Source of the DNA: Escherichia phage vB_EcoM_LMP33
Sequence record: MK482689.1
DNA: 64,000 bases
Reading direction: 5' to 3' (one strand)
Both the position numbers and the translations under genes were made by a program. The notes under the pieces are model-generated. The model ran no database searches. It saw nothing but the letters and a program-made list of their open reading frames with translations, and had not been told where the DNA came from. Below, in pieces: positions 51,268 to 51,604 of this stretch. The stretch's first letter is position 1. Each line of letters opens with the position of its first letter.

Positions 51268-51282
51268 ATTTCAAAAAAGTTG

Positions 51283-51311
51283 TTGACATTGAGATGTGAC
51301 TACTTTATAGT
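51283..51311 (+). promoter_or_regulatory. internal sigma70-like promoter (TTGACA-N17-TATAGT) within tRNA array
   Basis: TTGACA 51283-51288, TATAGT 51306-51311. Confidence 0.5.
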
Positions 51312-51604
51312 AACTAAAATACTTCATAATATGTATAATTCAAACACCAATACATGAGCGTTAGACGTAACACAATGTGGGGAAATTTGTTGTACATATT
51401 CTGAATAGTTTTCGTTGCGTAGCGTCTATTTTGCAAATTTAAAATAAATGCAAACGACAATGTTTTTCTGGCAGTAGCTTGATAGGCTAAACACCAGTGA
51501 GGTCTTCCAATCCCTCATCAAAGAATTTGGCGTACTCGCCCACGGTATGATTAATAAGGTGGGCATCTTTAAGGGCTTTCTAAGAGAGTCTTTAAAGATA
51601 ATTA

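Follow-up and report, generated by a model that had tools for sequence, protein, structure and literature searches.

What is encoded in a segment of a phage transfer RNA (tRNA) array that holds neither a conserved open reading frame (ORF) nor a canonical tRNA? We address this question for positions 51268-51604 of a 64,000-nt stretch of Escherichia phage vB_EcoM_LMP33 (MK482689.1), a Felix O1-type myovirus (Felixounavirus); hereafter, we refer to this whole stretch of analyzed DNA as the window. Our analysis indicates that the segment probably encodes a structured RNA, not a protein, with an architecture resembling the messenger RNA (mRNA)-like half of transfer-messenger RNA (tmRNA). Judged by sequence similarity, its core (51407-51599) is homologous to an unannotated element present in hundreds of unrelated enterobacterial phages and prophages, and the most likely role of the RNA is in host trans-translation, as a template for a tag or as a mimic.

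The segment sits inside an array of 25 tRNA genes called by ARAGORN (49871-54946), bordered by tRNA-Ile (51193-51267) on one side and by a weak Rfam tRNA match on the other. Its sequence is widely shared among close relatives: 51200-51700 recurs without a difference (100% identity) in Escherichia phage vB_EcoM_LMP34, and many Salmonella phages match it at 99% identity. The initial annotation had described the segment as free of ORFs and of canonical tRNAs and as ending at a tRNA-like gene, and these descriptions hold: there are just ORFs of 21-48 amino acids on the two strands, none of them conserved; ARAGORN calls no tRNA in 51268-51925; and the Rfam tRNA model matches 51605-51683 with 31.7 bits, barely above its threshold of 29. 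The same annotation proposed an additional small RNA with its own promoter. An RNA gene is supported, with a promoter directly ahead of the core in several lineages; what had been missed is the kind of RNA, a tmRNA-like mRNA-like domain with an SsrA-like frame, and the presence of an optional module at 51312-51405.

A tag frame conserved at the codon level

The core contains a short reading frame (Table 1) that is preceded by no ATG, GTG or TTG and by no Shine-Dalgarno sequence. Across 95 loci, this frame occurs in 21 nucleotide variants encoding 13 peptides, and every locus keeps all 10 codons and the stop with zero indels. The first codon is GCA or GCT, i.e., alanine, in 95 of 95 loci, and the peptides include ANEEMYLAVA, ANDEQFLAVA, ANDNTFLAVA, ANDDQFLAVA, ANDDVVLMAA and ANDSEMRVAA. 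Within codons 1-7, all third positions vary except that of the invariant CTG. Pairwise comparison yields 300 synonymous codon differences, with third-position and conservative changes predominating (e.g., GCT AAT GAT AAC in CBA120 versus GCA AAC GAT AAT in cp21), and the remaining two frames contain stops or give unrelated peptides. This conservation at the level of codons is an argument for the frame being read; as initiation signals are lacking, such reading points to a resume-type entry of the ribosome, as in trans-translation.

The nucleotides just upstream of the presumed resume codon are also constrained. Among 27 distinct sequences, A is found at positions -3, -4, -6 and -8 in all 27 and U at -5 in 24. 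In E. coli tmRNA, the nucleotide at -4 (A86) is the key frame-setting nucleotide, and the invariant A at -4 in the phage family matches it. The encoded peptide, ANDNVFLAVA, compares with ANDENYALAA for the E. coli SsrA tag, and the two tags would be equal in length once the alanine from a charged acceptor is added. In a numbering that includes this acceptor alanine, the phage tags retain N3 and D/E4, have an aromatic residue at position 7 in most cases (the FLAVA and YLAVA classes) and vary at positions 5 and 6. The retained positions are the ones at which SspB contacts the SsrA tag.

RNA structure and covariation

To assess the predicted structure, we aligned 32 diverse members of the family over the two-part hairpin that carries the stop codon in its loop and the adjoining H-type pseudoknot. 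In this alignment, 95.8% of cells are paired, compared with 29-51% in slid-partner controls, and both sides have changed in 8 of 18 pairs (60 cells). The four tested helices individually reach 87.5-99.4% of cells paired. None of 500 shuffles matched the observed percentage paired, the count of cells with both-side changes or the covariation score, whereas the count of eight pairs changed on both sides was reached by 66 of 500 shuffles.

The hairpin, which resembles helix 5 of tmRNA, consists of an outer stem (CUGG 51468-51471 with CCAG 51494-51497) and an inner stem (51475-51479 with 51484-51489); its compensations include a G-C to A-U change at pair 30-53 and a U-A to C-G change at pair 34-48. 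In the pseudoknot, stem 1 pairs 51498-51502 with 51513-51517, and stem 2 pairs the loop sequence CCAA (51507-51510) with UUGG (51527-51530). The two pseudoknot helices are paired in 99.4% and 98.4% of cells, with five pairs changed on both sides, and the stem 2 loop and its partner occur as CCAA/UUGG, CCGA/UCGG and CCAG/CUGG.

Upstream of the tag frame, all members share the motif AGUUUUCG...GCGAC, which encloses a variable hairpin and is similar to UUCGAC in the D-loop region of tmRNA. All members also have a pre-resume helix, which ends 3-6 nt before the resume codon: it is UAUUUU/AAAAUA in the window (51427-51432 with 51441-51446) and CUUUG/CAAAG or UUAU/AUAA elsewhere. A partner for a PK1-type pseudoknot (AGUUUU with GAAACU) exists in only part of the family, which does not include the window. 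Downstream, the family-wide loop of hairpin 3 is kept on at least five different stems (GCCC/GGGC, CCCUGA/UCAGGG, GGCGGGAG/CUCCCGCC, GCCCAC/GUGGGC and CUUCGA/UCGGAG). This is the GCCCAC..GTGGGC hairpin that the initial annotation had pointed out; it exists, at slightly different coordinates than proposed then (51538-51543 and 51559-51564, around a 15-nt loop). Folding of 51404-51604 gives -58.9 kcal/mol (z = -3.98), and none of 200 shuffles was as stable. A check of structural conservation, which had been suggested for the putative small RNA, comes out positive: the segment is conserved far beyond related phages, and its helices covary.

In a search of the whole window with Rfam models (E <= 0.05), tmRNA matched only at 51414-51603 and 51605-51686, and these two were the only matches of note other than tRNA-type ones. 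The first (model positions 56-295, E = 0.021) is centred on the tag frame; the second (E = 5.8e-05) covers an acceptor and a T arm. Each homologue tested has a sub-threshold match at its tag to a permuted, alpha or beta tmRNA model. The traits of tmRNA that are found in the element are thus a start-less, alanine-first tag frame encoding a conserved peptide with an Ala-rich hydrophobic C-terminus; an A four bases before the resume codon; and a stop codon within a helix 5 hairpin followed at once by a pseudoknot (PK2), with eight pairs changed on both sides.

Table 1. Features of the segment and its 3' neighbour in the window
Feature	Position	Strand	Description
Sigma-70-type promoter (predicted)	51276..51311	+	A-rich upstream motif AAAGTTGTTGACA, -35, -10
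Optional 5' leader module	51312..51405 (94 nt)	+	Between promoter and core
Core 5' part	51407..51449	+	AGUUUUCG motif (51407-51414), helix, A-rich pre-resume stretch AUAAAU
Tag frame	51450..51482	+	GCA AAC GAC AAT GTT TTT CTG GCA GTA GCT TGA = ANDNVFLAVA*
Helix-5-like hairpin	51468..51497	+	Stop codon in loop
H-type pseudoknot	51498..51530	+	Directly after helix-5-like hairpin
Hairpin 3	51538..51564	+	Stem GCCCAC/GUGGGC, family-wide loop GGURUGAUUAAUAA
Closing hairpin	51565..51599	+	Just before tRNA-like gene; reduced "closing-stem module"
tRNA-like element B	51605..51686	+	Rfam tRNA and tmRNA-model matches, pairing across five phages

Distribution among phages and prophages

A sensitive BLAST search with 51400-51700 returned matches in 774 phage records, which resolve into two separable modules. 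Module A, the tag block at 51441-51565, is found at 70-82% identity in Ackermannviridae (e.g., CBA120, cp21), Schitoviridae (FSL SP-076, PGN829.1), Klebsiella and E. coli siphoviruses (Webervirus-like phages, swi2, Bas79), SSU5 and Serratia phages. It also occurs in Chaseviridae, in other Ounavirinae genera (KPS64, Hena2), in 84 IMG/VR contigs and in lambdoid prophages. Of 5426 complete E. coli genomes, 137 contain module A, and RefSeq annotates nothing at these sites; in E. coli O26:H11 11368, for example, it lies in a 1-kb non-coding gap that extends from the Q antiterminator gene to the holin gene. Virulent phages of at least six unrelated groups carry module A. Module B (51604-51690) is found at 83-90% identity in jumbo, T5-like, Vequintavirinae and Stephanstirmvirinae phages.

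Module A is almost never annotated, and we found no description of the family in the openly accessible literature on tmRNA and these phage groups. A search for the 14-mer GGTGTGATTAATAA in a collection of genome contigs gave chance matches only (0 of 120 with the tag context), the pattern being too short for a collection of this kind.

Promoter and 5' leader

The TTGACA-N17-TATAGT promoter of the initial annotation is present at 51283-51311 and kept in relatives. Its -35 hexamer (TTGACA, 51283-51288) and -10 hexamer (TATAGT, 51306-51311) match the consensus at 11 of 12 positions across a 17-base spacer, and it ranks best among 15 promoter-like sites within 49500-55500. The quality of the match by itself is not rare in the window, where three equally good sites occur versus 1.0 expected and 7 of 100 shuffles reach three. 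The upstream context AAAGTTGTTGACA, on the other hand, belongs to a recurrent promoter family with the motif AAAGTTnTTGACA, of which the window has 10 copies (4122-54451) versus 1.25 expected, a number reached by none of 100 shuffles. Two of these copies shortly precede the tRNA array (49724 and 49815), and one is located within it (54439). The same promoter is found at the orthologous place in Phi87, FO1a, Tf and KPS64, so that both hexamers, the 17-bp spacing, recurrence and positional conservation come together at this site. The transcript would begin near 51318.

A good promoter precedes AGUUUUCG by 6-10 nt in Tf, KPS64, Hena2, swi2, Bas79 and SSU5. With so little sequence ahead of this motif, the RNA could not form the canonical tRNA-like domain of tmRNA around the message.

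In the window, in Felix O1 and in about 90 other records, a leader module separates promoter and core. Felixounavirus Tf and Mooglevirus KPS64 lack it and have the promoter immediately next to AGTTTTCG. The 94-nt leader is not junk, since it is found together with the core in Chaseviridae phages and its hairpin (51358-51373, with a conserved GACG loop) covaries, the stem variants GCCUUC/GAAGGC, GACUUC/GGAGUC and GUUA/UAAC showing compensation. In Yersinia phage PYps3T (locus L108, ~480-630), leader and core are separated by a 105-nt insertion flanked by GAAGTA direct repeats, which looks like a miniature mobile insertion.

The 3' end and tRNA-like element B

Past hairpin 3, members of the family continue into what we call a closing-stem module, GGUAAGAGCA...UGCUCUUUCC, which holds hypervariable inserts and is reduced in the window to the closing hairpin. 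FO1a has a different, longer closing hairpin, with an insert that is shared with an E. coli prophage, and in FSL SP-076 and swi2 the element is followed by a terminator. In the window, the 3' end of the RNA would presumably be made by RNase P, through cleavage at 51604/51605, the 5' end of the tRNA-like gene.

This gene, element B, exceeds the RF00005 threshold only slightly, as given above, is not called by ARAGORN and appears as tRNA-OTHER in some records. Its acceptor stem has 7 bp, beginning C1-G72, G2-C71, G3.U70, and is followed by A73 and CCA. There is no D arm; the variable region has 23 nt, the T arm is canonical, and the anticodon-type hairpin combines a covarying stem with an invariant loop, CUUCUAA (UCU). 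In five phages, the acceptor, anticodon-type and T helices of B are 100% paired, with both-side changes in 6 of 17 pairs, and G3.U70 is present in four of the five copies. G3.U70, A73 and CCA are shared by B and the phage's own tRNA-Ala. Copies of B occur in jumbo, T5-like, Vequintavirinae and Justusliebigvirus phages (loci L010-L013, ~700-790). B is an independent, mobile module, because it replaces the canonical tRNA-Arg(UCU) that occupies its slot in sister phages and because it occurs alone elsewhere. It could be an alanine-charged decoder of AGA/AGG codons, a tmRNA mimic consisting of the tRNA-like domain only, or a nuclease-resistant substitute for tRNA-Arg. As predicted here, all parts of a tmRNA would lie in one transcription unit in this phage, in the order message, then tRNA-like domain.

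Where the element departs from tmRNA

Several results weigh against a role in trans-translation of the kind performed by tmRNA. The two RF00023 matches in the window, with 16.0 bits (51414-51603) and 22.1 bits (51605-51686), do not reach the gathering score of 47; scores are likewise 19.4-26.3 bits versus 47 for RF04321, 14.6-21.8 versus 84 for beta_tmRNA and 19.3 versus 50 for alpha_tmRNA. With default settings, ARAGORN reports no tmRNA for the window, the complete FO1a genome or 88 loci. In the window and its relatives, there is no acceptor strand upstream of the core and no tRNA-like domain that encloses the message, and we know of no mechanism by which trans-translation could use a message lacking a tRNA-like domain. 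What follows the element on its 3' side also varies from phage to phage: B in the window, tRNA-Arg(UCU) in both Phi87 and KPS64, tRNA-Leu in Hena2 and a terminator in SP-076. In Ackermannviridae, this place is taken by an uncalled 125-nt tRNA-like gene (CBA120, locus L008, 836-962; also loci L058 and L037). Many lambdoid and siphovirus members have a tRNA-shaped 3' domain (UGUGGUG...CACCACA), and some lambdoid members have 3' domains that are not tRNA-shaped. G3.U70 is absent from all non-B 3' neighbours examined; the alanine identity marks are thus seen only in the separable B and are missing from the neighbours of the family elsewhere. Conversely, stand-alone copies of B have no A element within 700 nt.

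Given that an enclosing tRNA-like domain is lacking, that Rfam scores stay below threshold and that ARAGORN is silent, the element does not belong among the tmRNAs as defined at present. Because the enclosing domain is absent and the 3' neighbour variable, the conserved unit is the message-plus-pseudoknot half only.

A permuted arrangement fares no better. No conserved upstream acceptor piece that would pair with a GGGG 5' strand was found in the window or its relatives, and the permuted-tmRNA alignment in the window borrows the T arm of the canonical tRNA-Ile and leaves acceptor positions mispaired. We also rejected a number of specific candidates. If GGGG at 51380-51383 supplied the 5' acceptor strand that pairs with the 3' end of B, only 5 of 7 pairs would form, versus 7 of 7 for the local CGGGGCG. 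The one call of a tmRNA made in swi2 relies on the 3' end of tRNA-Met and has a nonsense tag. T-arm-like hairpins upstream (loci L004, L007) or downstream (swi2, locus L090, Cba120) of the element are unconserved and have no G3.U70. Base-pairing between the core and B amounts to a 6-bp match that is absent in other phages, and we treated it as chance.

A proposed role and its alternatives

The preferred reading, a tag template or mimic in host trans-translation, can be spelled out as follows. The RNA would be transcribed from ~51318; ribosomes rescued by an alanyl tRNA-like domain with SmpB would resume on the GCA at 51450; and ANDNVFLAVA would be appended as an SsrA-like degron. The acceptor might come from the adjacent, alanine-type B in an unprocessed A-B precursor (message first, tRNA-like domain last) or from host tmRNA-SmpB in trans. 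We consider the chances that ANDNVFLAVA is appended to rescued proteins to be about even, while an acceptor supplied in cis from an unprocessed precursor seems doubtful for this phage. The broader proposal, which we offer tentatively, is that of a horizontally shared class of tmRNA-derived RNA, previously unrecognized in enterobacterial phages and comprising a tag template and pseudoknots without an enclosing tRNA-like domain, that re-programs host ribosome rescue. Its members might serve as a message placed 5' of an acceptor module, as in the 51407-51686 pair, or separate from one, or they might be loaded in trans onto ribosomes that host tmRNA-SmpB has engaged.

The most serious alternative is that the RNA is an untranslated decoy or sponge, mimicking the message and pseudoknot region of tmRNA (pre-resume stretch, helix 5 and PK2) and binding SmpB, ribosomal protein S1, RNase R or stalled ribosomes, so that host trans-translation is damped or redirected. 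Such a function would suit a conserved unit that includes no tRNA-like domain, and it would suit the invariant nucleotides that precede the resume codon. There is also a precedent for phages with partial mimics of tmRNA, as the RNA of mycobacteriophage DS6A, which consists of the tRNA-like domain only, has been discussed as an SmpB-titrating inhibitor (PMC4131195). However, a pure nucleotide mimic should come to resemble the enterobacterial ssrA message, which is nearly invariant, whereas the phage copies differ from the host and from each other at wobble positions, yet keep the N, the D/E, the aromatic residue and the Ala-rich C-terminus. The variation is codon-like, and length, alanine start and in-frame stop are strictly kept, which speaks for a frame that is translated; we regard a decoy as unlikely.

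A further possibility is that the segment is an inert remnant, i.e., a piece of a former phage or host ssrA gene (acquired, e.g., by imprecise prophage excision) that is decaying and is carried passively in the recombination-prone tRNA array, with the promoter merely re-starting transcription of the downstream tRNAs. Fragments of ssrA are known in prophages (PMC9004378), and the tRNA array is highly mosaic: its breakpoints fall at tRNA borders, and genes for homing endonucleases lie in the vicinity. A remnant would not be expected to show compensatory changes in four helices, a frame intact in 95 loci and a presence in at least six unrelated virulent groups, often with its own promoter and terminator. 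The element is moreover dissimilar to host ssrA, and its matches in E. coli genomes, only 137 of 5426, lie solely at prophage-type places; on these grounds we rejected a host ssrA fragment or an attachment-site remnant. We therefore consider passive carriage very improbable.

Protein-coding readings, finally, can hardly be maintained: the minus-strand ORFs at 51426-51566 and 51314-51460 (46 and 48 amino acids) are annotated as hypothetical proteins in LMP34 and Phi87, but homologous frames contain 1-4 stops or switch frame in most relatives, a plus-strand leader-peptide attenuator would require the ATG, GTG or TTG and Shine-Dalgarno sequence that the conserved frame lacks, and substitutions follow base-pairing.

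If the tag frame is indeed kept without an enclosing domain, the family would represent either a new way for a template to enter trans-translation or a new form of viral interference with ribosome rescue and SsrA-dependent proteolysis. Under the tag-template reading, phage tags (..FLAVA, ..LMAA, ..RVAA) would replace the host ALAA tag. A function would also be given to a long non-coding gap in phages used for therapy or typing (Felix O1, CBA120-type phages, Webervirus) and to a part of the late-gene leader that lambdoid prophages have in pathogenic E. coli. Annotation with standard tools (ARAGORN, Rfam, PGAP) overlooks the element or places spurious small ORFs there.

Other features of the tRNA array and its relatives

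In FO1a (loci L002 and L103, 24952-26317), two HNH endonuclease genes flank a unit of tRNA-Ile plus the element; the second of them starts within the 3' end of element B, which illustrates homing-driven mosaic turnover of the array. AT-rich long hairpins of the form TTAAAGG-GTTCTTACGAGTAT-CCTTTAA precede tRNA or tRNA-like genes at 50631-50663, 51565-51599 and 52180-52269, and the same loop sequence is found in Hena2 (locus L099, 660-700); these hairpins may be processing signals or recombination joints.

Several genes in the array and in related loci look like tRNAs and are not called as such. At 50775-50875, the window has two tRNA halves in apparently permuted order, called by neither ARAGORN nor Rfam: a T arm (50809-50825), the 3' acceptor strand ACTCGGC followed by A, 3 nt, GTCGAGT (7 of 7 complementary) and a D arm, GTGTAATGGTAGCAC. 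A second uncalled gene, at 51831-51912, has the acceptor stem ATGGGAC/GTCCCAT followed by G and CCA, the T arm GGGGTTCAACTCCTC and an anticodon stem with the 9-nt loop CTTCCAACA, i.e., a TCC anticodon with two extra bases. The 125-nt gene of CBA120 combines the acceptor GCCGUU/AACGGC, an 8-bp stem (AUCUGACU/AGUCAGAU) and the T arm UUGGGUUCGACUCCCUA, then U and CCA. In Erwinia phage Hena2 (locus L099, 291-470), an uncalled tRNA-like gene of ~180 nt directly precedes the promoter of the element. The gene has a 5' end, GGGUGAUUCUG, similar to that of tmRNA, GGGGCUGAUUCUG, and a 3' end made up of a T arm, AUCACUC, G and CCA.

In lambdoid phages and siphoviruses, the core is followed by inverted-repeat cassettes, GGTAAGAGCA...TGCTCTTTCC and GTTGTGGTG...CACCACAAC (locus L098, 2640-2870; locus L005, 720-930; many IMG/VR loci). 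Their inserts are hypervariable, and even phages that are nearly identical carry different ones; a frequent set of inserts folds into a tRNA-shaped domain whose D-like and T-like loops are complementary (GCUGAU/AUCAGC).

Comparison with known systems

Stable RNAs other than tRNAs have a precedent in phage tRNA clusters. The cluster of phage T4 encodes the stable RNAs C and D (species 1 and 2), which are not tRNAs and are released by tRNA-processing enzymes; to our knowledge, neither is known to carry a tag-like frame.

With one-piece tmRNA (RF00023), the phage element shares a short, start-less frame with alanine as first codon and a tag of the ANDxxxxxxA type, 10 encoded residues as in the enterobacterial tag, an A at -4, a helix 5 whose loop holds the stop, an H-type pseudoknot directly 3' of it and a UUCG..CGAC motif upstream, and the core gives collinear, sub-threshold matches to the standard model. 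It differs in that the phage core is only ~190 nt long, has its 5' end just before AGUUUUCG and lacks an enclosing acceptor stem and T arm; nor is the phage sequence close to that of host ssrA.

The best Rfam similarity (23.7-26.3 bits) is to the two-piece tmRNAs of alpha- and beta-proteobacteria and cyanobacteria (RF01849, RF01850, RF01851 and RF04321). The tag context of the phage, AUAAAUGCAAACGAU, is nearly identical to the consensus of these models, a hairpin follows the tag in both, and the idea of a separate coding piece suits a phage RNA without an acceptor end of its own at the 3' side. In the two-piece tmRNAs, however, the coding piece begins with a 5' acceptor strand, GGGG..., that pairs with an acceptor piece encoded upstream, and neither is found here or in relatives.

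Phage tmRNAs (in the mycobacteriophage Bxz1 group, Bacillus phage G and marine phages) are similar in being phage genes that derive from, or imitate, the RNA of trans-translation. They are, however, complete and detected by standard tools, whereas the present family is missed by those tools. An ARAGORN-based census found tmRNAs in 2.3% of phage genomes (PMC9004378), and Kuttervirus genome announcements give zero tmRNAs. Two further announcements, without coordinates, state that ARAGORN finds ssrA in Felix O1 and Moogle and not in Mushroom (PMC4392139, PMC4319497). Since Mushroom is 99.2% identical to the window across the present element and yet lacks an ssrA call, the announced ssrA cannot be this element. 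At lowered thresholds, ARAGORN reports a spurious permuted tmRNA in FO1a that ends on tRNA-Ala, and such a call may lie behind the Felix O1 and Moogle statements.

An exhaustive survey published in 2014 found phage ssrA only in mycobacteriophages and Bacillus phage G, in addition to the tRNA-like-domain-only RNA of DS6A, and in no enterobacterial phage (PMC4131195). DS6A demonstrates that phages can carry one half of tmRNA alone (PMC4131195). Whereas the DS6A RNA comprises only the tRNA-like domain, the present family corresponds to the complementary half, the message and the pseudoknots.

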